Made by a program: the position numbers and the translations under genes. DNA of 48,703 nucleotides from an uncultured Nitrospiraceae bacterium (GTDB lineage Bacteria > Nitrospirota > Thermodesulfovibrionia > Thermodesulfovibrionales > SM23-35), in assembly GCA_964639385.1 (NCBI GenBank), contig CAZXCW010000002.1, forward strand, positions 1-48,703. The letters run 5' to 3'. The notes beneath the pieces are model-generated. The model had not been told where the DNA came from. It searched no databases and worked only from the letters and a program-made list of their open reading frames with translations. This document shows positions 1 to 45,637 of this stretch, piece by piece. How positions within the stretch are numbered: the stretch's first letter is position 1; the number at the start of each line of letters is the position of its first letter.

Positions 1-22
1 CTAAACATCGCTCCTCTTTGAT

Positions 23-178
23 TTATTCTTTTTCTTTTGTTACAAATTTCTCAGTCTCCTTGTCAAACTTCTCGTTACATCCCTTCGCACAGAAATAATA
101 CGTCCTTCCTTTGTAAACACTCGTCGCTGCTGCCTTTTTCTCATCTACTGTCATATTACATACAGGGTCTTTTGCCAT
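23..178 (-). CDS. YHS/TRASH-domain small metal-binding protein (51 aa, below the ORF-track size cutoff)
   Basis: My own minus-strand translation is MAKDPVCNMTVDEKKAAATSVYKGRTYYFCAKGCNEKFDKETEKFVTKEKE*. The DPVCxM...YYFC..GC pattern is typical of YHS domains. GGAGGTG lies 6 nt upstream of the ATG at 178..176, and the TAA stop is at 25..23. An ATG at 8..6 preceded by AGAGGAG may start a further minus-strand gene that runs off the window. Confidence 0.7.
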   Translation of the reverse strand: MAKDPVCNMTVDEKKAAATSVYKGRTYYFCAKGCNEKFDKETEKFVTKEKE

Positions 179-229
179 CGAACTCACCTCCTTTTTCTAA
201 CCAACCTTAAGCAAACAAAACAATCGCTG

Positions 230-354
230 ATGGCGGATGTAGTATTTGAGCGGATTTTTTTGCTGATAGTCCAATGAAAATATTCCAATATAAAGAGGCA
301 AAAACCTCGGAGGTCGGAACGACCGAGAATGAGCGAAGATACTGCATCCGCCAT
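230..354 (+). repeat. Structured intergenic repeat, copy A (~125 nt; closing stem + two internal hairpins)
   Basis: ATGGCGGATGTAGTAT (230..245) pairs with ATACTGCATCCGCCAT (339..354). It shares the blocks AGTATTTGAGCGG and GAGAATGAGCGAA with copies at 4993..5123 and 23711..23833. Confidence 0.75.
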
Positions 355-377
355 AGGTTTCACGAATAATTAAGTAA

Positions 378-1625
378 TTATTTTTTCTTTGCCCTTTGTT
401 TGCTTTGAAGCTCTTTAGCCTTTTCTTTAATCCATGACAGGCTTCGCTGCATCTCGCTCCAGCCATACCAAAATGCATAATCAGGATTTGCATGAAATGC
501 CCCCTGGAATGTTCTCATACGGTATTCAAGGAACATAATGAAAAGTTTTTGTTCAATCACTGTTGGGGCATCAGTGAATGTAAGCAGGTCAGGAAATGCA
601 TAAGCATAGCTTTTCGGTTTTTTAATTGTACCGTCTTTGTATAGGTTCGCAACAATACGAATTGCCCCAGCCATTAAATGATCTGCCTCTTTAATCATCT
701 GGTCGCCTTTTTTTAACTCTGCTTTTGCAAAATTGACGGAATGACACTGATTGCAGGTCTTCACCATTTTATCCCTTTCTTTCTGCCAATCTTCCTGTGT
801 CAGACGGGCTAAATCTGCGGCCTTAACAACATCAAGCCGTGCCGTTGGTTTCCCTTTAGGATCAAGCACGCCGAGCCCTTGAAGAATGGTAACACGGTCC
901 GCAGCCCACTGTTTGTCCTCGGGCATCGGGAGTCTTACTGCAAGAAATCCCCATGCTGTTCTATTAGCATGGTTCCCCTCCTGCATGTGGCAAGTCTGAC
1001 ATGTCGGTGCAGCAACCGTTTCAGGAAGAGTTCCGATCTGCTTCAGCAGATATCGAACACCGTGCTTAGAAGCGGAATACATCTCCCACTGTGGATGATC
1101 AATTCCCATGTGGCAGGTCCGGCAGGACTGTGGTTGACTGGCTTCTTTAATGGAAAATGCATGCCTTGTATGGCACGCATCGCATGAAGCAAGACCAAAA
1201 CCTCCGTCATCCTTTTTCAATTCTTTAATATCTGCCTCAGTCTTTAACCCAATTTTGTGACATCCACCACAGCCTTTCAATCCCTCCATCAATGCCATAG
1301 GTTGCCAATGAGCTGTTGGCATGGCTTTCATAGCAGCCCATGCAAGAGCATGCTTTCCAGACTTGAATTGTTGAACTTGTGCAGCGTGGCACACGGCACA
1401 GGTATCAGGTGTTGGAATTTTCACCTTTGCGACATCTTGAGCCGATTGGTGTTGATCGCCATGACATGATGAGCAGGCAACTCCGGCCTTGCTGTGCTTA
1501 CTGAGTTGCCAGTCATAGACAATACGTGGAGTAATATCCTTGTGACAATCGATACATACCTGCGCTGATGCAATGGAAACAAGAAAAAGACTTACGATAG
1601 AAACAATTATTATCCTGTAAACCAT
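378..1625 (-). CDS. Secreted octaheme c-type cytochrome, hydroxylamine-oxidoreductase (HAO)-like/octaheme reductase family
   Basis: Eight CxxCH motifs: CIDCH, CSSCH, CAVCH, CGGCH, CDACH, CRTCH, CQTCH, CNQCH. I moved the start to the internal ATG at 1625 (MVYRIIIVSIVSLFLVSIASAQV, a signal peptide) because AAGGAGGTG sits 4 nt upstream. The track's longer start at 1709 overlaps the upstream gene. The family call beyond 'octaheme' is by size and heme count only. Confidence 0.8.
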   Translation of the reverse strand: MVYRIIIVSIVSLFLVSIASAQVCIDCHKDITPRIVYDWQLSKHSKAGVACSSCHGDQHQSAQDVAKVKIPTPDTCAVCHAAQVQQFKSGKHALAWAAMKAMPTAHWQPMALMEGLKGCGGCHKIGLKTEADIKELKKDDGGFGLASCDACHTRHAFSIKEASQPQSCRTCHMGIDHPQWEMYSASKHGVRYLLKQIGTLPETVAAPTCQTCHMQEGNHANRTAWGFLAVRLPMPEDKQWAADRVTILQGLGVLDPKGKPTARLDVVKAADLARLTQEDWQKERDKMVKTCNQCHSVNFAKAELKKGDQMIKEADHLMAGAIRIVANLYKDGTIKKPKSYAYAFPDLLTFTDAPTVIEQKLFIMFLEYRMRTFQGAFHANPDYAFWYGWSEMQRSLSWIKEKAKELQSKQRAKKK

Positions 1626-1695
1626 AAGCACCTCCTTAGTTTTAATACAATTTAATACAAATGGTGCATCCTGATCAAAATGATTCATTCTTATT

Positions 1696-2346
1696 TTACT
1701 TTTTTTCAACTTCCATCACCTTCTCAACAAACAGGGGTTCTGGCAAAGAACCCTCAAACCGAATATCCTCATTGATGATCATCTTTGGCACACTGAAAAC
1801 ATCATACTTATTGACCAAATGAGGGAATTCTGTGGACTCGATCATATCTGCACGAATAAGGTCGCTTTCGATAGCCAGTTTGTGACCCATGCGAACTGCA
1901 TGGGCGCAATACGGTCAGGTCAGACTCACAAAAATTTGAATGTGAACCGGCCTCCTTAGATTCTTCAGTCTTTTTTTAGTTTCCTCACTCAAATCAGAGT
2001 TAGCTCTGGAAACATCAAGGATATCCTCAATGAGAGAACTAAACTCATACCCGGAGGGAATACCGAAGTAGCGGATACCGTAGTCCTTTGCACCTTCCAC
2101 AACAATGGCAGGAATCTTGTCAATTTCGTACTGTTTCACCTTTTCAACATCCTTCTGAAAGTCATAAACTTCAAGCATAACTCTATCGGAAAATTTAACA
2201 AGCTCGTTCAAAAGCTCTCTTGCATATTTGCAATGAGGACATTCAAATGCCTGGGTAAAGAAAAGGAGTCTAACCTTCTGTGGAAGTTTTCTAAATTCTT
2301 CCTTCACAAAATTTTTAACATCTTCTGGTATCTGTACCATATCCAT
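1696..2346 (-). CDS. Protein-disulfide oxidoreductase / glutaredoxin-like two-domain thioredoxin-fold protein, predicted selenoprotein (in-frame UGA at 1917..1915)
   Basis: ORFs 1915..2346 and 1696..1890 are in the same frame, separated by TGA plus 8 sense codons. Read-through gives ...IFVSLT-U-PYC-AHAVRMGHKLAIES... The N-unit carries CPHC and the C-unit would carry UPYC. The fused length of ~216 aa fits this family. There is no SD before the ATG of the 64-aa ORF. A hairpin lies 9 nt after the UGA. Confidence 0.7.
1885..1905 (-). promoter_or_regulatory. SECIS-like stem-loop downstream of the in-frame UGA
   Basis: The mRNA reads GCCCAUGC-AGUUC-GCAUGGGU, with 7 Watson-Crick pairs plus a terminal G-U and a 5-nt loop containing GU. 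It starts 9 nt 3' of the UGA. Confidence 0.5.
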
Positions 2347-2363
2347 ATCATGCTCTCCTTACG

Positions 2364-3308
2364 TCAATAAGTGTCTGTTGCCTGTGCCGTCCAAAAACCC
2401 TCCATAATTAGATAATCATAGGCAGAAAGAGCTGCCTTCGCCCCTTCGCCGCAAGCAACTATAATTTGCTTGGCAGACACAGTTGTAACATCACCTGCTG
2501 CAAAGATGCCAGGCATATTGGTTCTGCAATAACAATCGACTATAATTTCCCTGTGTTTGTTGAGATGAACAACATCTCCGACAAACTCGGAATTAGGTAT
2601 CAGGCCGATTTCTACGAACATCCCTTCAATAGCGATCTCTTTTACCTCACCATTTTCCCTGTTTTTTATAACAATACCCGTCACCCTTTTTTCACCAAGT
2701 ACTTTAATAACTTCCCATTCAAGATAGGTCAGTACTTTTTCTGAATTCTTAATCCTTTCAAGCAGAATGGGATCAGCCTGCCAGGCAGGAGCAAAATTAA
2801 CTATTGAGATTTTTGTTGCTATAGGTAACAAGTCTATCACCGCCTGCACCGCTGAATTTCCGCCTCCAATCACTGCCACTTCACGACCACCAAAAAGTGG
2901 GGCATCACAGGTCGAGCAGTAGCTTATGCCGCGGCCTGCCAATTCCTTCTCCCCGGGTACTCCCAGAGGCCGAGAACGTTTTCCCGTGGCAATGATCACC
3001 GCTCTCGCTTGATATGTGTGTACATCCGTTGAAATTTCAAATGCCTTTTCCAGAACTTTAATGCCTGTTACGCTTTCTCCAATGCGTTTGTCCACCTCCC
3101 CAAAATGACTAAAATTCTTGTAAAAGCGATCAGTTAGCTCCGCGCCGGTAATCTGTTGAAACCCGATATAGTTTTCTATTTCAGTAGTAAGCATCATCTG
3201 ACCGCCAATATCCTTGGCTAACAGGAAAGTATTCAGCTTCTTTCGCGCCGCATATAGCGCTGCAGTCATTGCAGCAGGGCCACCACCTAAAATAGCCAGA
3301 TTGTACAT
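2364..3308 (-). CDS. trxB: Thioredoxin-disulfide reductase (low-Mr type)
   Basis: The N-terminal GGGPAAMTAALYAARK is an FAD motif, CSTCD is the redox-active CxxC, and GGGNSAVQ is the NADPH motif. The length is 314 aa. Confidence 0.92.
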   Translation of the reverse strand: MYNLAILGGGPAAMTAALYAARKKLNTFLLAKDIGGQMMLTTEIENYIGFQQITGAELTDRFYKNFSHFGEVDKRIGESVTGIKVLEKAFEISTDVHTYQARAVIIATGKRSRPLGVPGEKELAGRGISYCSTCDAPLFGGREVAVIGGGNSAVQAVIDLLPIATKISIVNFAPAWQADPILLERIKNSEKVLTYLEWEVIKVLGEKRVTGIVIKNRENGEVKEIAIEGMFVEIGLIPNSEFVGDVVHLNKHREIIVDCYCRTNMPGIFAAGDVTTVSAKQIIVACGEGAKAALSAYDYLIMEGFWTAQATDTY

Positions 3309-3380
3309 CTCATATCTTCCCTCTTCTATAAGATTTTGTAAGATGGGAACCGCTCATAAGACGAATTTTCGATAAAACCT

Positions 3381-3546
3381 TTAACCCAAATAATGCAGAC
3401 ATTGTTCAAAAATTTATCTAACTCGATGATTTATTGGGAATATCTTTATTGGTTATATCCGTAAAAATATTCCATAAACCATCAGTTAAAGGTATACTAA
3501 GGTATCGAAAAATAAATTTTTTCACAACATCTGCATTATATAAATG
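3381..3546. mobile_element. MITE-like element bounded by ~35-nt terminal inverted repeats (AATAATGCAGAYRTTGTnnAAAAATTTAT)
   Basis: The left end at 3381..3418 is TTAACCCAAATAATGCAGACATTGTTCAAAAATTTATC. The right end at 3507..3546 is its imperfect reverse complement (...ATAAATTTTTTCACAACATCTGCATTATAT). There is no coding capacity. Confidence 0.5.
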
Positions 3547-3789
3547 CATTTTTTAGATTAATGGATTTTGCTCATAGCTACTATAGTACTCAAAAAACAT
3601 ACACATTTACACCAGATTGTTCATAAAACTTAGCAGCAGATATAGTGGTCGAACGGATTTAAATTTGCCACTTTTTCATGACATATGAATCCACTATACT
3701 TGTAGACCAAAAAGAAAGGTATCAGTGAATGTCTGATTTTTTCGTAGGATTTTTACCAATTATGGTATCCGTATTTTTCCTACACGGAA

Positions 3790-4170
3790 TTATGTACTGT
3801 ACTCCAGCCAATGCCACCATTGCCTTAAATCTTTGCAACGCCTCTCAGCATCTAAGGACACGATAAATATACCATCTAATTTGACCTTTGTTTTTGAAGA
3901 AATATGGACAAAGGATGCCCACCAATGAGCAATACCAATATCCTGAGTGACTGCAAGAACTTCATAGTTAAACTGAATCTGTTCCTGAGAGTGCATAATA
4001 TTTAATAAGAAGTAATCACGGATCGCTGAATTACCGCATATGGGTTCACTGAAAGGGTTTGCATGATACGTGGCATTATCTGTGAAAAGACCTTCAAATG
4101 ACTGGGTATCTCGACTTTCCCACGCACGTCCATACGAATCAAGCCAAGATCTAAATATCTCAAGATTCAT
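3790..4170 (-). CDS. NTF2/SnoaL-like fold protein (function unknown)
   Basis: The 126-aa ORF has N-terminal ...WLDSYGRAWESRDTQSFEGLFTDNATYHANPF, which is typical of SnoaL/DUF4440-type NTF2-like proteins. It lies directly downstream of rnc. Confidence 0.55.
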   Translation of the reverse strand: MNLEIFRSWLDSYGRAWESRDTQSFEGLFTDNATYHANPFSEPICGNSAIRDYFLLNIMHSQEQIQFNYEVLAVTQDIGIAHWWASFVHISSKTKVKLDGIFIVSLDAERRCKDLRQWWHWLEYST

Positions 4171-4184
4171 AATACACCCCTCCT

Positions 4185-4898
4185 TTAGGACATTGCGCTT
4201 TGATCACTGTATGAAAGAAGACGTGAAAGTGCCTCTTTGGCAGCAAAGGCCTGCGCTTCTTTTTTACTTTTTCCTGTACCCTTGCCAAACTTTTTCCCGG
4301 TTATAAAGACTTCAATCGTAAAAATTTTTTTGTGTTCCTCTCCTTCCTGTTTTATAACTCTGTAATCAGGTAGTGTACCGAATAAGAGTTGCGTTTTTTC
4401 TTGAAGTTCTGTCTTAAAATCATGGAGTTCATTAGAATGCATGATAACATCTATCTTTTCCCTGAACAACCTTAGTATAAGTTCTCTAACTTTTTTGTAA
4501 CCGCCGTCTAAGTAAACTGCTCCCAAAAAGGCTTCAACAGCATCTGCCAGAAGCGATTTTTTAGACCTGCCACCACTGGCCTCCTCGCCCTTTCCAAGCC
4601 TGAGATATCTTCCTAAAGATATAGAGTTAGCAACCTCAGAAAGGACAGATTCTTTTACGAGATAGGATTTAGTCTTAGCCATAACTGATTCTGTGAATTT
4701 TTTATCTAAAAAAAAGAGATACTCGACGATTACGAATCCGAGTATAGAATCGCCAAGAAATTCCAGCCTTTCATTATGGTCAGCTGATTTATCAGGATTT
4801 TCATGATAGAAAGACCTGTGTGTCAGAGCCTCTATGAGAAGGGCCTTATTTTTAAAAATGTAACCAAAATGTTTTTCTAATTCAGCAATATTTTCCAA
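4185..4898 (-). CDS. rnc: Ribonuclease III
   Basis: It has the ERLEFLGDSILG signature, a C-terminal dsRBD (GKGTGKSKKEAQAFAAKEAL), and a length of 237 aa. Confidence 0.95.
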   Translation of the reverse strand: MENIAELEKHFGYIFKNKALLIEALTHRSFYHENPDKSADHNERLEFLGDSILGFVIVEYLFFLDKKFTESVMAKTKSYLVKESVLSEVANSISLGRYLRLGKGEEASGGRSKKSLLADAVEAFLGAVYLDGGYKKVRELILRLFREKIDVIMHSNELHDFKTELQEKTQLLFGTLPDYRVIKQEGEEHKKIFTIEVFITGKKFGKGTGKSKKEAQAFAAKEALSRLLSYSDQSAMS

Positions 4899-6415: not shown

Positions 6416-6651
6416 TATGCAGAAGGCTTTTTCTTATCAATATATTCAATAGCATCCTTAACTTTTACGATCTTCTCTGCATCTTCATCAGGTATCTCTA
6501 TACCGAATGCCTCCTCAAATGCCATTACAAGCTCTACTGTATCTAATGAATCTGCACCAAGGTCTTCAACAAAAGATTTCTCGACTGTAATCTCTGCTGG
6601 GCTTACCCCGAGCTGCTTCGATATAATCTCTTTTACTCTCTCTTCTATCAT
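6415..6651 (-). CDS. acpP: Acyl carrier protein
   Basis: A 78-aa protein with the [20 protein letters not shown] phosphopantetheine-attachment motif. Confidence 0.95.
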
Positions 6652-15522: not shown

Positions 15523-16047
15523 TTGAAAAACAAAACCTTTATCCTCCTGATAATCTTCATCTGTGTTGCTATTGTTTTCTACATAGTAAGGAATCAGTAT
15601 AGTGTGATTAAAATAAGGGCTATTTCTCAGGCACCGGATATTGAGCTCACTGAGATACACAAAAATAATAAGCTGAAACTTTCTGAGCTAAAAGGTTCTG
15701 TTTTATTTATTAATTTCTGGGCTTCTTGGTGTCAGCCGTGCATGGATGAAGTGCCTTCAATAGAAGGGCTATTCAGGCATCTGTCAGAGAACTCAAGATT
15801 TAAGATGATAACCATCCTTTACAAAGATGACGCAGATGATGTACTAAGTCATATGAAGGAAATGGGTTATACCTTTCCTATATATATCGATCTTAAAGGT
15901 TCCGCTGCTAAACAATTCGGTATTACCGGTGTGCCTGAGACATTCATAATCGACAAAAAGGGAAATTTAAGAAAGAAAATAATAGGTCCTTTTGAATGGG
16001 ATTCCCCGCAAGTTATCGAAGCAGTCTCTAATCTTATTAATGAATAA
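15523..16047 (+). CDS. TlpA/ResA-like membrane-anchored thiol:disulfide oxidoreductase
   Basis: TTG start, an N-terminal TM anchor, a WASWCQPC thioredoxin-fold CxxC and FGITGVPETFIID. The length is 174 aa. Confidence 0.85.
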   Translation: MKNKTFILLIIFICVAIVFYIVRNQYSVIKIRAISQAPDIELTEIHKNNKLKLSELKGSVLFINFWASWCQPCMDEVPSIEGLFRHLSENSRFKMITILYKDDADDVLSHMKEMGYTFPIYIDLKGSAAKQFGITGVPETFIIDKKGNLRKKIIGPFEWDSPQVIEAVSNLINE

Positions 16048-16049
16048 TA

Positions 16050-16571
16050 ATGGGAAAAATCAAGACTGCTGAACCGGCTCTCCTTTTTGTAAGTACCCTT
16101 TATTCCAGTTCCGATATATTTAACTACTCAAAGGAAATACTCGAAAAAAATTTTGGAGATATTTTATTCATAAGCCCTTCCCTTCCATGGGAATACTCTT
16201 CTTATTATAGGGATGAAATCGGCTGGCCATTATTCAGGCAATTTATCTTCTTCAAAAACCTTATAGATCCAGAATTGCTCACAGATATAAAACTCAAGAC
16301 AAATGAGATTGAATCTGCTCTATCGTCAGAAGGTAAAAGACGTATTAATTTCGATCCGGGCTATCTTACCCTATCCAAGGTAGTCCTTGCATCTACTAAA
16401 AACTATGCTCATCGTATTTATCTCGGCAAAGGTATCTATGGAGAGGTAACTCTTATTCACAAAAACGGGGCTTATAGTCCCCTTTTATTCACTTACAGAG
16501 ATTATCAGGACAAAACACACATCGATATATTCATGAAGGCAAGGGAAATACTGAAGGAAATGTCGGGTTAA
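16050..16571 (+). CDS. Conserved hypothetical protein, DUF4416-like
   Basis: A 173-aa ORF tightly coupled to the upstream gene. SSYYRDEIG...INFDPGYLTLSKVVLASTKNYAHRIYLGKGIY matches my recollection of the DUF4416 pattern. This was not verified. Confidence 0.55.
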   Translation: MGKIKTAEPALLFVSTLYSSSDIFNYSKEILEKNFGDILFISPSLPWEYSSYYRDEIGWPLFRQFIFFKNLIDPELLTDIKLKTNEIESALSSEGKRRINFDPGYLTLSKVVLASTKNYAHRIYLGKGIYGEVTLIHKNGAYSPLLFTYRDYQDKTHIDIFMKAREILKEMSG

Positions 16572-42985: not shown

Positions 42986-44116
42986 ATGGTTAGTAAAAAT
43001 ATACCTTTTTTAAATATCGGGCCAGGTGAATTCATTAAAGAAGAATTAGAAGTTCGCAATTGGAGACAGGAAGATCTGGCTGACATACTGGGAATCTCCC
43101 TGAAATCCGTAAACAAGCTTATTATGAATAAGCAAGCTATAACAATAGAAACAGCAAAACTATTAAGCAAAGCATTTGGCCAATCTCCTCAATATTGGGT
43201 TAACCTAGATACAAATTATAGACTTAGATTACAAAAAGAAGATTCAAAAGAGAAAAATGTAGAAATTAAGGCGAATATATACAAATACATGCCTATTAAA
43301 GAAATGATTAAGAAAGGATGGTTAAAACCATTTGAAGTAATCGATGATTTAGTTACTGAAGCAAAACGGTTCTGGGATATTCAGGCATTAAATTTTTCCT
43401 TCATAGATAAAGTTGCTTCATTGAATTTCAGAAAGTCAGAGTCTTTTACACAATACAACAAATACTATGCATTTACATGGTTTCAAATGGCTAAAAGGTG
43501 TGCAAAGATTTATCATGCAGATAAATATGATAAGGATGCACTGCAGTCCGTAGCTAACAATCTTTACAGATATACGACTATAGAAAATGGAGTTGAAGCA
43601 TTTCTTAATGACCTAAACAAAGCAGGTGTAAAATTTTTTATTTTAAGTCATCTTCAAAAGACCTATATAGATGGAGCTTCATTTTTTGACAATTCAAATC
43701 CGGTTATTGTTTATACAGCCCGATATGACAGAATTGACAATTTCTGGTTTACACTTGCCCACGAGATAGGCCACATCATATTACATCTTAAAAAGACAGG
43801 TGATTTTTTTATAGATAATCTGGATGCTTTGTATACAGAAAAAGAAAAGGCAGCGAATAGATTTGCAGAAAAAATACTAAAGGCACAAAATATTATCAAA
43901 TATTTTGAACCGTATAGAAAATATATATCGAAAGATAGGGTTTTATCTTGTGCTCAGAGATTAAACATCAGTCCGGCTGCTATTGTCGGTATATTACAAC
44001 ACCGCGATATCCTTTCCCGAAGAAATCTAAACAGCTTTAAAACCTCCATCTTAAATCTTATACCCGAAAAATATCTGGCAGAAAAATATATTCATAAGAT
44101 ACACAAAGCTGCCTGA
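42986..44116 (+). CDS. HigA-type XRE HTH antitoxin fused to an ImmA/IrrE (COG2856, M78) zinc metallopeptidase domain
   Basis: The N-terminus PGEFIKEELEVRNWRQEDLADILGISLKSVNKLIMNKQAITIETAKLLSKAFGQSPQYWVNLDTNYRL is a HigA/VapI-like HTH. The C-terminal half contains FTLAHEIGHIILH (HExxH). The length is 376 aa, and the ATG has GGAGA 6 nt upstream. Confidence 0.8.
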   Translation: MVSKNIPFLNIGPGEFIKEELEVRNWRQEDLADILGISLKSVNKLIMNKQAITIETAKLLSKAFGQSPQYWVNLDTNYRLRLQKEDSKEKNVEIKANIYKYMPIKEMIKKGWLKPFEVIDDLVTEAKRFWDIQALNFSFIDKVASLNFRKSESFTQYNKYYAFTWFQMAKRCAKIYHADKYDKDALQSVANNLYRYTTIENGVEAFLNDLNKAGVKFFILSHLQKTYIDGASFFDNSNPVIVYTARYDRIDNFWFTLAHEIGHIILHLKKTGDFFIDNLDALYTEKEKAANRFAEKILKAQNIIKYFEPYRKYISKDRVLSCAQRLNISPAAIVGILQHRDILSRRNLNSFKTSILNLIPEKYLAEKYIHKIHKAA

Positions 44117-44164: not shown

Positions 44165-44200
44165 ATTTTGGAAGAGTTGAATGAGGTACTGGCAGCGTGA
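44165..44200 (+). repeat. Direct repeat 2 (36 nt) reading as a gene 3' end: ILEELNEVLAA*, with its stop overlapping the next ORF's GTG (GTGA)
   Basis: See 42541..42576. Three of the five differences are silent, including TAA versus TGA. Confidence 0.7.
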
Positions 44201-44634
44201 ATGATTTCATAAAATTTAGAGAGGCTATAAAACCTTATATTGACGGATGGAAATCTGTTGAGATTCGGTCAGTTTGTTTTTCCGCCCATGAAAGATGGAT
44301 TAATCTCGGAACACGGATAATTTTATCTGAAAAAACAAAGGAAATTATCTCTATAAATTCACTTCCTGAATTCCCGAGATTTAAAACTTTCTATGAAGTT
44401 CACGATATCAGCAAACTGGATGGTCTTTTGACACAACTTGAGAAAGGAAGTATTACCGTAAATAGCAAGGATATCTTTTTCAAATTTAGAATAGAAAACG
44501 ATGGTTTTAAAGTCGACGTGCCTGTTTTTAACTTTTATAGAAATTATAGATACGAGCGCAATTTCTCTTATGAATTTAGTTTCCCAAGTATTACCTTAAG
44601 GGCTGGCGAATCGTTACACCAACCTACTATATAA
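44197..44634 (+). CDS. Hypothetical protein (145 aa), no recognisable motif; possibly the N-terminal part of a frameshifted longer gene
   Basis: GTG start with GAGGT 9 nt upstream. The frame of the next ORF is already open from 44600, so the two overlap by 35 nt. Confidence 0.5.
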   Translation: MNDFIKFREAIKPYIDGWKSVEIRSVCFSAHERWINLGTRIILSEKTKEIISINSLPEFPRFKTFYEVHDISKLDGLLTQLEKGSITVNSKDIFFKFRIENDGFKVDVPVFNFYRNYRYERNFSYEFSFPSITLRAGESLHQPTI

Positions 44635-44662: not shown

Positions 44663-45637
44663 TTGGACGGGGGTTTGCGTACTTACAAAATCCCATATAA
44701 TGGATTAAATGACCTACTTGTATCGTTTCTTGGAATCCCCAAACCTGACTACGGTCATATTGAATCTGCTATTGTAGACGTTATAGCACCTATACAAATG
44801 CGACTTGGAAACGATTGTAAATTATCTGATGGCAGACTCACTGTCCATGCAGAAATCATTAAATATGATAACCTAGAAGATATATCAATAGGGCTCATTA
44901 CACATTCAGGCAACATCATTGTTCAAAGAACATCTTTTACCCTGGAAAAAACTGATTGGAAGGGGGAAAAAGGTCTGATAGTCAGTCACAAAGAAGTAAA
45001 CGTTGGTAAAGTTACTTCAGTTGATATTTTCTTAAGTTTCAGAAGCGAATATCTAGATAAACTGACGATTAGTGATCCAGCAGCACTATTAAAAAACCCA
45101 AGGATTTTGGGCTATAACCATTTCGATAAAGACCTCAATAAATTCAAAGGGTATCTCAAATATCCAGATCAGGAAACCTTCGAGAAAGGAATAAGCCTGC
45201 TACTTCATTTCTGCGGTTTTAATACGGCCGCCTATGGTTTAATAAAGGGGAAAAAAGGAATAGGCGGAATTCATGAAGAAATTGACCTTATTGCGTTTAT
45301 CCCTTCCAATCAAGTTATTGCAGGAGAATGCCCAATAAGGGAAATTGATATTAATGGAAAACTTTCGAAATTCGCTAGGAAGGTAAAGCAAATACAGGAA
45401 CTTCTCAAGGGATTCTCTATTATTCCTCTTATTTTTACAACCCTTAAGAGTGAGGAAGTTACAAAAACTGACATCGAAAAAGCAAAAAATGAAGGTATTG
45501 GGGTTGTTACCTGTGAAAATATTAACGAACTTTTTGAAATGGCAGGGCTGCAAAGGCAACCAAACGAAATTTTAACCTATCTTAAAAGTCTGATTCTTAT
45601 AGATGAGCACCAGCCATGGAAAATGCATTACCGATAG
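44663..45637 (+). CDS. Hypothetical protein with C-terminal Mrr/restriction-endonuclease-like (PD-(D/E)xK) domain
   Basis: TTG start with a weak RBS. The C-terminal segment ETFEKGISLLLHFCGFN...GGIHEEIDLIAFIPSNQVIAGECP follows the Mrr_cat-type pattern FE..v..LL...Gf...(D/E)GIDlia....v.v(Q/E)cK. Pro replaces the expected Lys. Confidence 0.5.
   Translation: MDGGLRTYKIPYNGLNDLLVSFLGIPKPDYGHIESAIVDVIAPIQMRLGNDCKLSDGRLTVHAEIIKYDNLEDISIGLITHSGNIIVQRTSFTLEKTDWKGEKGLIVSHKEVNVGKVTSVDIFLSFRSEYLDKLTISDPAALLKNPRILGYNHFDKDLNKFKGYLKYPDQETFEKGISLLLHFCGFNTAAYGLIKGKKGIGGIHEEIDLIAFIPSNQVIAGECPIREIDINGKLSKFARKVKQIQELLKGFSIIPLIFTTLKSEEVTKTDIEKAKNEGIGVVTCENINELFEMAGLQRQPNEILTYLKSLILIDEHQPWKMHYR

Follow-up and report, generated by a model that had tools for sequence, protein, structure and literature searches.

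The minus-strand gene at 2346..1696 of the window (the whole 48,703-nucleotide stretch of DNA that we analysed) very probably encodes a single protein-disulfide oxidoreductase (PDO) with two thioredoxin folds, in which an in-frame UGA is read as selenocysteine (Sec) through a SECIS element and opens a C-terminal U-P-Y-C redox motif. The initial annotation had proposed a probable selenocysteine PDO/glutaredoxin-like protein at this place, a proposal that is supported by the alignment of the TGA with a Cys column, by a hairpin specific to the Sec forms, by covariation and by a covariance model. The selenoprotein PDO family has been known since 2004, and the window gene is an ordinary new member of it from a new host lineage; it leaves the current understanding of selenoprotein biology unchanged.

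The gene and its reading frame

We consider the gene as it lies on the minus strand, where the following features can be located.

2346..1696, minus: the selenoprotein PDO gene, assigned by translation, a TIGR02187 match and a full-length match to PDB 1A8L/1J08
2360..2355, minus: AAGGAG resembling a Shine-Dalgarno sequence, 8 nt before the start codon ATG 2346, by direct reading
2241..2230, minus: N-terminal CPHC of the first thioredoxin-fold unit, residues 36-39, by translation, with C36 and C39 invariant in the homolog alignment
1917..1915, minus: UGA, the putative Sec codon at residue 144, opening the C-terminal U-P-Y-C redox motif (1917..1906)

On translation, the TGA at 1917..1915 is the sole interruption of the frame 2346..1696. 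It separates an ORF of 143 aa (2346..1915) from one of 64 aa (1890..1696), and the two lie in the same minus-strand frame with the TGA and 8 sense codons between them, just as the initial annotation had described. Read through the TGA, the PDO has 216 residues, with the junction ...HIQIFVSLT-[TGA]-PYCAHAVRMGHK.... The translation and the alignments likewise bear out two further points made at the outset, that the stop falls on the first redox position of the second thioredoxin unit and that the first unit has a normal CPHC. The 64-aa fragment had also been described as having no Shine-Dalgarno sequence of its own, and a direct reading of the sequence finds nothing AGGAG-like before the internal ATG at 1890.

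Because gene callers take the UGA as a stop, the PDO gene is split into fragments of 143 aa and 64 aa. The public gene calls P0004 and P0125 are the two sides of the TGA, and the JGI calls in the ortholog L001 are split likewise. In the current records the first fragment is a 'glutaredoxin-like protein' and the second a 'hypothetical protein'; the two should be merged into one selenoprotein entry. TGA is the ordinary stop for 17 of the 41 genes on the contig, the upstream flavoprotein gene included, so the codon is not globally reassigned.

A scan of 1..4300 for promoters and terminators is uninformative, with promoter matches at the level of shuffled sequence. A tandem duplication, TTGTATTAAA TTGTATTAAA, stands at window 1641-1660 (minus strand), within the short stretch that separates the PDO stop from the Shine-Dalgarno sequence of the following cytochrome gene.

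Protein family and homologs

With U read as C, the PDO matches the NCBIfam HMM TIGR02187 'PDO_seleno_TRX' at 268.1 bits against a cutoff of 185, over positions 2-208 of 209. In a phmmer search of the PDB, its residues 10-211 align with residues 8-222 of the Pyrococcus furiosus PDO 1A8L (E=1.9e-51), and the other matches are 1J08, 2YWM, 2AYT and 2HLS. The U-PYC pairs exactly with the CPYC of 1A8L and of the other solved PDOs in the sequence alignment, and the window protein is predicted to consist of two thioredoxin-fold units that correspond end to end with the solved PDO structures. The identity as a two-domain PDO, which had been proposed from the joined length of ~216 aa, agrees with both the TIGR02187 score and the 1A8L alignment.

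What do the homologs carry at the position of the TGA? A large protein collection yields 2,940 homologs, and the best 120 of these are nearly all ~215 aa long. In about 2,900 homologs the TGA column is the first Cys of the C-terminal CPYC; T143 is invariant in the homolog alignment, and P145, Y146 and C147 are at least 90% conserved. The codon at this column in 60 metagenomic relatives is TGY in 54 and TGA in 6. The alignment, this codon census and the 1A8L pairing agree that Cys is the residue found in the homologs in place of U. The close homologs are either single Cys proteins of ~215 aa or carry the same in-frame TGA, and none of them is truly split into two genes.

Conservation of the in-frame TGA

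The only other truncated match, P0064 (~84-85% identity), comes from two independent samples, L001 (JGI) and L002 (SRA). Both orthologs have the same in-frame TGA, followed by a conserved frame of 72 codons, and the TGA of the window itself is reproduced in L204, an independent Logan assembly of SRR14802573. Substitutions after the TGA fall on third positions in 13 of 22 cases against L001, a Sec form, and in 28 of 43 against L003, a Cys form, with the same bias upstream of the TGA; the downstream part is therefore translated in the PDO frame.

To look beyond these relatives, the pattern H-I-Q-x-F-x-x-x-T-TGA-P-Y-C is scanned over one genome per prokaryotic species. The same T-TGA-P-Y-C is present in at least 120 loci/species genomes from many phyla, and the matches listed include Chloroflexota, Acidobacteriota, Desulfobacterales, Bacillota, Zixibacteria, Cloacimonadota and Spirochaetes, with the complete genome of Sulfobacillus thermotolerans Kr1 among the Bacillota. 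Many of the Sec forms among the matches listed have Leu, Ala or Thr in place of the window's internal Met, so that separate initiation at that ATG is no general explanation. The occurrence of the same codon in L001, L002, L204 and at least 120 species genomes indicates, from the comparison of sequences, that the TGA is more than a product of chance.

The hairpin downstream of the UGA

The coding sequence next to the UGA contains a candidate SECIS element with the following parts.

1914..1875, minus: SECIS-like stem-loop in the coding sequence, identified by fold, covariation and covariance model
1905..1898 / 1892..1884, minus: core stem, with a bulged U at 1885, by RNAfold
1897..1893, minus: apical loop AGUUC, starting 17 nt after the UGA, with its GU from a Val codon
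1914..1912/1877..1875 and 1909..1907/1882..1880, minus: two lower helices, by RNAfold

The hairpin GCCCAUGC/AGUUC/GCAUGGGU begins 9 nt after the UGA, and RNAfold recovers it where the initial annotation had placed it. The predicted fold has 7 contiguous pairs, a G-C pair across the bulged U and two short lower helices, and L001 retains these helices, with G-U replaced by A-U and G-C by G-U. The hairpin has a weak fold-energy z-score, between -1.3 and -1.8, and the mean z of Sec and Cys forms (-0.11 vs 0.30, p=0.0016) differs by a small effect. Energy is a poor discriminator here because the segments are GC-rich and their shuffles fold well, and support for the hairpin therefore rests on the comparison with other sequences, in which tests of stem length, register and covariation are used in place of fold-energy z-scores. 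Given the amino acids, the choice of synonymous codons alone would produce a 7-bp stem ~8% of the time, by a hand estimate from codon degeneracy.

The Sec and Cys forms differ clearly in stem length. A stem of at least 5 bp that closes a loop of 3-7 nt is found in 116 of 120 Sec-form elements and in 25 of 53 Cys forms (p=1e-10), and for the same 120 and 53 elements GU occurs in the loop of 71% of the Sec forms vs 19% of the Cys forms. When pairs are counted in a fixed register over all A-V-type Sec forms, the counts are bimodal because the loop length and the register vary. The covariation set in the register of the window consists of 37 Sec-form sequences, picked solely by their A-V residues and the fixed GC in the next codon, a choice made without regard to the four outer pairs. 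In these 37 sequences 96.8% of the cells are paired, as compared with 24-46% in slid registers, and in two of the four free pairs both sides vary. Covariation scores 0.316, vs 0.129 for shuffled sequences, and 0 of 500 shuffles reach the observed value. In L003, the closest Cys ortholog (77% identity), 2 of 6 pairs remain, as many as expected by chance.

A covariance model is built from the 36 other Sec-form elements with the window left out. In the window its best match is 1917..1870, with 49.2 bits (E about 1e-12); the second-best match, and the only other one below E=0.1, has 13.7 bits (E=0.028). The same model gives 49.0 bits for the Sec ortholog L001 and 23-30 bits for the Cys orthologs. 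A search with Rfam gives no match over the window at the gathering threshold or over 1780..1990 at E<=10, and its models may not cover this gene family. The initial annotation had judged the hairpin compatible with a bacterial SECIS. This judgement is borne out by the covariation, by the contrast between Sec and Cys forms and by the small G-containing apical loop, and a structure-aware RNA model made from other taxa recognises the site.

One locus combines the two forms. L184 (839-886) is a Cys (TGC) PDO with a perfect 6/6 hairpin of the window type, and at 58.6 bits it has the top covariance-model score of all sequences tested; it looks like a recent Sec-to-Cys replacement in which the SECIS is still present.

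In terms of codons, the stem consists of a codon x1 and a codon x2 that are reverse complements of each other, in the following combinations.

x1 CAU, x2 AUG: His...Met, in the window; only in its clade and absent from the other 119 Sec-form elements examined
x1 CGG, x2 CUG: Arg...Leu, in other Sec forms
x1 CAG, x2 CUG: Gln...Leu, in other Sec forms
x1 GGU, x2 GCC or ACC: Gly...Ala or Thr, in other Sec forms

The PDO family has at least three SECIS registers or types (L004-L123, from TGA +1 to +50).

Register 1, the window type: the loop (N-GUN-N) falls on the Val codon, 17 nt 3' of the UGA
Register 2, GGCC-AGGUU-GGCC: on A-A-R-L-A, 21-22 nt after the UGA and four nucleotides further 3' than the window type
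Register 3, CUGUGC-AGUUN-GCACAG: shifted 3', in L006, L071, L102 and L127

This comparative set of at least 120 Sec-form genomes and three registers displays the covariation of the codons x1 and x2, in which a SECIS within the coding region constrains the protein sequence.

The host and the reading of the UGA

We turn our attention to the organism in which the UGA would be decoded. The contig has 41.6% G+C and carries the housekeeping genes RNase III, FabF/G, MDH, NDK, ClpB-like, ObgE, DnaB, L9 and PcrA as well as efflux systems (NCBIfam). The DnaB encoded on it shares 89% identity with that of a 'Thermodesulfovibrionales bacterium' MAG and 81-86% with those of several Nitrospirota MAGs. An HAO-like cytochrome gene beside the PDO might suggest an anammox planctomycete, but the DnaB homologs point to Thermodesulfovibrionales/Nitrospirota, and the cytochrome is far below the hydrazine dehydrogenase cutoff. 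Within the 48.7-kb window, the NCBIfam annotation of 40 genes includes no selA, selB or selD, the tRNA scan finds no tRNA and so no tRNA-Sec, and a scan of all in-frame TGAs finds no second plausible selenoprotein gene. Since the window has neither sel genes nor tRNA-Sec, we infer the ability of the host to decode Sec only from related taxa, namely the Thermodesulfovibrio genomes with complete selABCD (PMC5389517). The gene suggests that this uncultured lineage of Nitrospirota probably uses Sec.

The report of selC* in the Thermodesulfovibrio lineage gives rise to a small possibility of Cys insertion. The UGA would then be recoded, wholly or partly, as Cys by a tRNA(Sec)-like opal-suppressor selC* tRNA-Cys (anticodon UCA), for example when selenium is scarce, and the product would have CPYC. 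Mukai et al. describe selC* tRNA-Cys genes from Thermodesulfovibrio and from contigs of probable Nitrospirae origin, and in E. coli they find that a selC* tRNA-Cys can translate a natural Sec UGA as Cys (PMC5389517). The present host itself is a Nitrospirota bacterium of the Thermodesulfovibrionales-like kind, and L003, a sister lineage, clearly has a functional Cys form. We nevertheless hold this recoding to be improbable: the tRNA scan finds no selC*-type tRNA in the window; the genomes with selC* also had the full Sec apparatus, which makes Cys insertion an addition to Sec and not a substitute for it (PMC5389517); the combination of a UCA-anticodon selC* with a dedicated CysRS* is described for Desulfobacterales, not for Nitrospirae (PMC5389517); and the conserved SECIS hairpin favours delivery of the SelB type over a Cys suppressor.

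Less probable still is that the TGA acts as a true stop, which would make the gene either a pseudogene or a split gene with the 143-aa fragment and a 64-aa fragment that starts at ATG 1890. This is the form that the gene callers annotate (P0004, P0125 and the JGI calls in L001), and an ATG does follow 8 codons after the TGA. However, orthologs of 85% identity from independent samples keep both the TGA and the frame, and selection downstream of the TGA is purifying. The 8 codons that separate the TGA from the ATG retain P-Y-C, the remainder of the active site. The ATG at 1890 is without a Shine-Dalgarno sequence and is replaced by Leu, Ala or Thr codons in many Sec forms, and according to the PDB alignment the 64-aa piece would have a thioredoxin fold that is missing its first strand and its CxxC. 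As for a sequencing or assembly error in place of TGC or TGT, which would take a single base in a metagenome-assembled contig, it is hardly conceivable, given that the same codon stands in the NCBI contig, in the independent Logan assembly L204 (SRR14802573) and in diverged orthologs from two other samples, and that the TGA is accompanied by a hairpin specific to the Sec form. Decoding of the UGA as Sec is thus the reading that we adopt below.

Neighbouring genes

Three features on the same strand frame the PDO gene.

3308..2364, minus: upstream flavoprotein of 314 aa, an FAD/NAD(P)H disulfide reductase of the TrxR/AhpF-C-terminal type, by NCBIfam and PDB
2918..2907, minus: redox motif CSTC of the flavoprotein, residues 131-134, by motif reading
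378..1625, minus: secreted multihaem c-type cytochrome (HAO/octahaem-like), by Pfam Multi-haem_cyto, E=7.5e-28

The end of the flavoprotein gene is 17 nt from the start of the PDO. The initial annotation had placed the PDO 17 nt downstream of trxB; the spacing is correct, but the identity of the neighbour as trxB does not hold. The flavoprotein reaches 302.8 bits on TRX_reduct (TIGR01292), below the cutoff of 343.45 for TrxB, and it matches positions 213-514 of 515 of the NCBIfam AhpF model at 326 bits. Its best match in the PDB is the catalytic core of AhpF, 1FL2 (E=2.6e-71), and 1FL2, 4O5Q and 1HYU all come ahead of the TrxRs. A canonical TrxB at 3308..2364 is ruled out by the score of 302.8 vs 343.45 bits and by these AhpF-core matches. 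As the neighbour is like the C-terminal part of AhpF, the pair of flavoprotein and PDO resembles a split AhpF. The two genes are also adjacent in L001 and L003, and the flavoprotein is presumed to be the reductase of the PDO.

The cytochrome gene lies on the same strand, 70 nt downstream of the PDO stop. Its likely start is ATG 1625, which has its own AAGGAGG at 1637..1631; the mechanical ORF start at 1709 (TTG, overlapping the PDO gene) lies, almost certainly, too far upstream. Against the hydrazine dehydrogenase model, whose cutoff is 900 bits, the protein reaches 88. The cytochrome neighbour is conserved, with a direct match in L204, and L003 has an unidentified 428-aa gene in the same place.

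Two other regions of the window can be mentioned. A ResA/TlpA/DsbE-like thiol:disulfide oxidoreductase is encoded at 15523-16047 (plus strand), followed 2 nt later by an ORF of 173 aa at 16050-16571 (plus strand) that has no NCBIfam match; the two are in different frames and carry no TGA. At 42986-44116 (plus strand) there is a protein of 376 aa with the helix-turn-helix N-terminus of a HigA-type antitoxin and a region like the spr1629-family repressor/antitoxin, and the adjoining ORFs 44197-44634 and 44663-45637 have no family match. Together they may form a small defence or addiction module.

Proposed mechanism

We propose that the gene is expressed as a ~24-kDa cytoplasmic PDO in which U-P-Y-C replaces C-P-Y-C at the C-terminal site. 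The hairpin 9 nt past the UGA would act as a bacterial SECIS and recruit SelB·GTP·Sec-tRNA(Sec), so that the UGA at 1917..1915 would be decoded as Sec. The Sec would take the attacking, N-terminal position of the motif, as it does in other UxxC selenoproteins of the thioredoxin fold, and the protein would work in the manner of the PDOs of archaea and bacteria and of the N-terminal AhpF domain. By analogy, electrons would pass from NAD(P)H to the FAD and the CSTC of the flavoprotein (3308..2364) and from there to the selenenylsulfide of U-P-Y-C. To judge from the characterised homologs, the reduced U-P-Y-C site would in turn reduce peroxiredoxins or disulfides of other proteins. The PDO of S. 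solfataricus is reduced by NADPH and thioredoxin reductase and regenerates the Bcp peroxiredoxins, and its key thiol-transferase site is the C-terminal CXXC (PMC7465337).

Evolution of the Sec and Cys forms

A rough neighbour-joining tree of 167 PDOs contains at least 14 switches between Sec and Cys, and it places the window clade, which has three Sec sequences, beside a Cys form. This number fits the published dynamic exchange of Sec and Cys, and the window gene adds a clean case to the frequent exchange in thioredoxin-fold proteins. It is possible, though we think it rather unlikely, that the Nitrospirota PDO clade gained Sec independently from a Cys ancestor, with a SECIS made in place when codon x1 became CAU (His) and so could pair, as a reverse complement, with the Met codon AUG that the A-V-R-M motif of the family already had. 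If true, this would be a traceable natural birth of a SECIS de novo, in which the RNA pairing dictates how the amino acids covary, as H..M in the window and as R/Q..L or G..A/T in other Sec forms. A dual reading of the UGA, as Sec or as Cys, via a selC*-type tRNA-Cys is less likely than such an independent gain.

Comparison with known systems

The window gene has every sequence-level feature of the selenoprotein PDO family. The reference member, as given in PMC9312934 and PMC13188914 after Kryukov & Gladyshev 2004, is ABB15282.1 from Carboxydothermus hydrogenoformans, and Zhang et al. 2006 list the family in this species and in Symbiobacterium thermophilum (PMC1794560). It is also reported from Asgard archaea (PMC13188914). 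In the literature the family counts as a predicted UxxC selenoprotein (PMC9312934, PMC13188914, PMC1794560); direct evidence of selenium incorporation was not found in the literature for any member, and its status in the review is 'Predicted' (PMC9312934). The main text of the BSepDB paper does not name the family. The known members and the window gene are alike in the family HMM, in the UxxC of the second thioredoxin fold, in the SECIS right after the UGA and in the predominance of Cys homologs. They differ in that the host of the window gene is an uncultured Thermodesulfovibrionales-like Nitrospirota bacterium and that its nearest relatives beyond its own small clade are Cys forms.

The archaeal and bacterial PDOs (1A8L of P. 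furiosus, 1J08 of P. horikoshii, 2AYT/2YWM of Aquifex aeolicus and 2HLS of A. pernix) likewise have two thioredoxin folds, an N-terminal CxxC and a C-terminal CPYC. As in the S. solfataricus PDO with its TrxR and Bcp partners, a donor of the TrxR type is expected for the window PDO, and the C-terminal site would be the main thiol-transferase centre. Unlike these known PDOs, it has Sec for the first Cys of the C-terminal site and an AhpF-like reductase as neighbour. The window organism also has a low G+C (41.6%) and probably does not belong to the hyperthermophiles.

The likeness to AhpF can be followed along both proteins of the pair, with the PDO corresponding to AhpF positions 4-187 and the flavoprotein to 213-514, like a split AhpF. 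With the TIGR03143 'AhpF homolog' fusion, the order of flavoprotein followed by PDO is collinear (positions 4-308 and 350-540 of 555). Each half is below the cutoff of 502.9 of AhpF (TIGR03140), and both are also below the TIGR03143 cutoff. Unlike AhpF, the window pair is made of two polypeptides in the reverse gene order, with Sec for Cys and with no AhpC/peroxiredoxin gene adjacent. The pair thus resembles AhpF in how it would work and is not a member of that family.

A T-TGA-P-Y-C whose frame runs on for 249-398 codons is seen in five other loci, L042 (TGA 6526-6528, plus strand), L052, L063, L094 and L116, which are labelled as Thermodesulfobacteriota, 'Proteobacteria' and other MAGs. Their predicted product is a protein of ~545 aa with a PDO-like N-domain carrying U and a TrxR-like C-half with CATC, that is, the AhpF architecture with Sec. 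In hmmscan, L063 matches AhpF positions 1-512 of 515 at 311 bits (below the cutoff) and TRX_reduct at 360 bits. The hairpin of these fusion loci is of a different type, GCAGCAGGUxGCUGYGG.

The UxxC thioredoxins (for example of Treponema denticola) and glutaredoxins (for example of Clostridium) likewise have the thioredoxin fold, Sec at the attacking position and a SECIS in the coding region. They are single-domain proteins of about 80-110 aa, whereas the window PDO has two domains, with a second CxxC that is all Cys.
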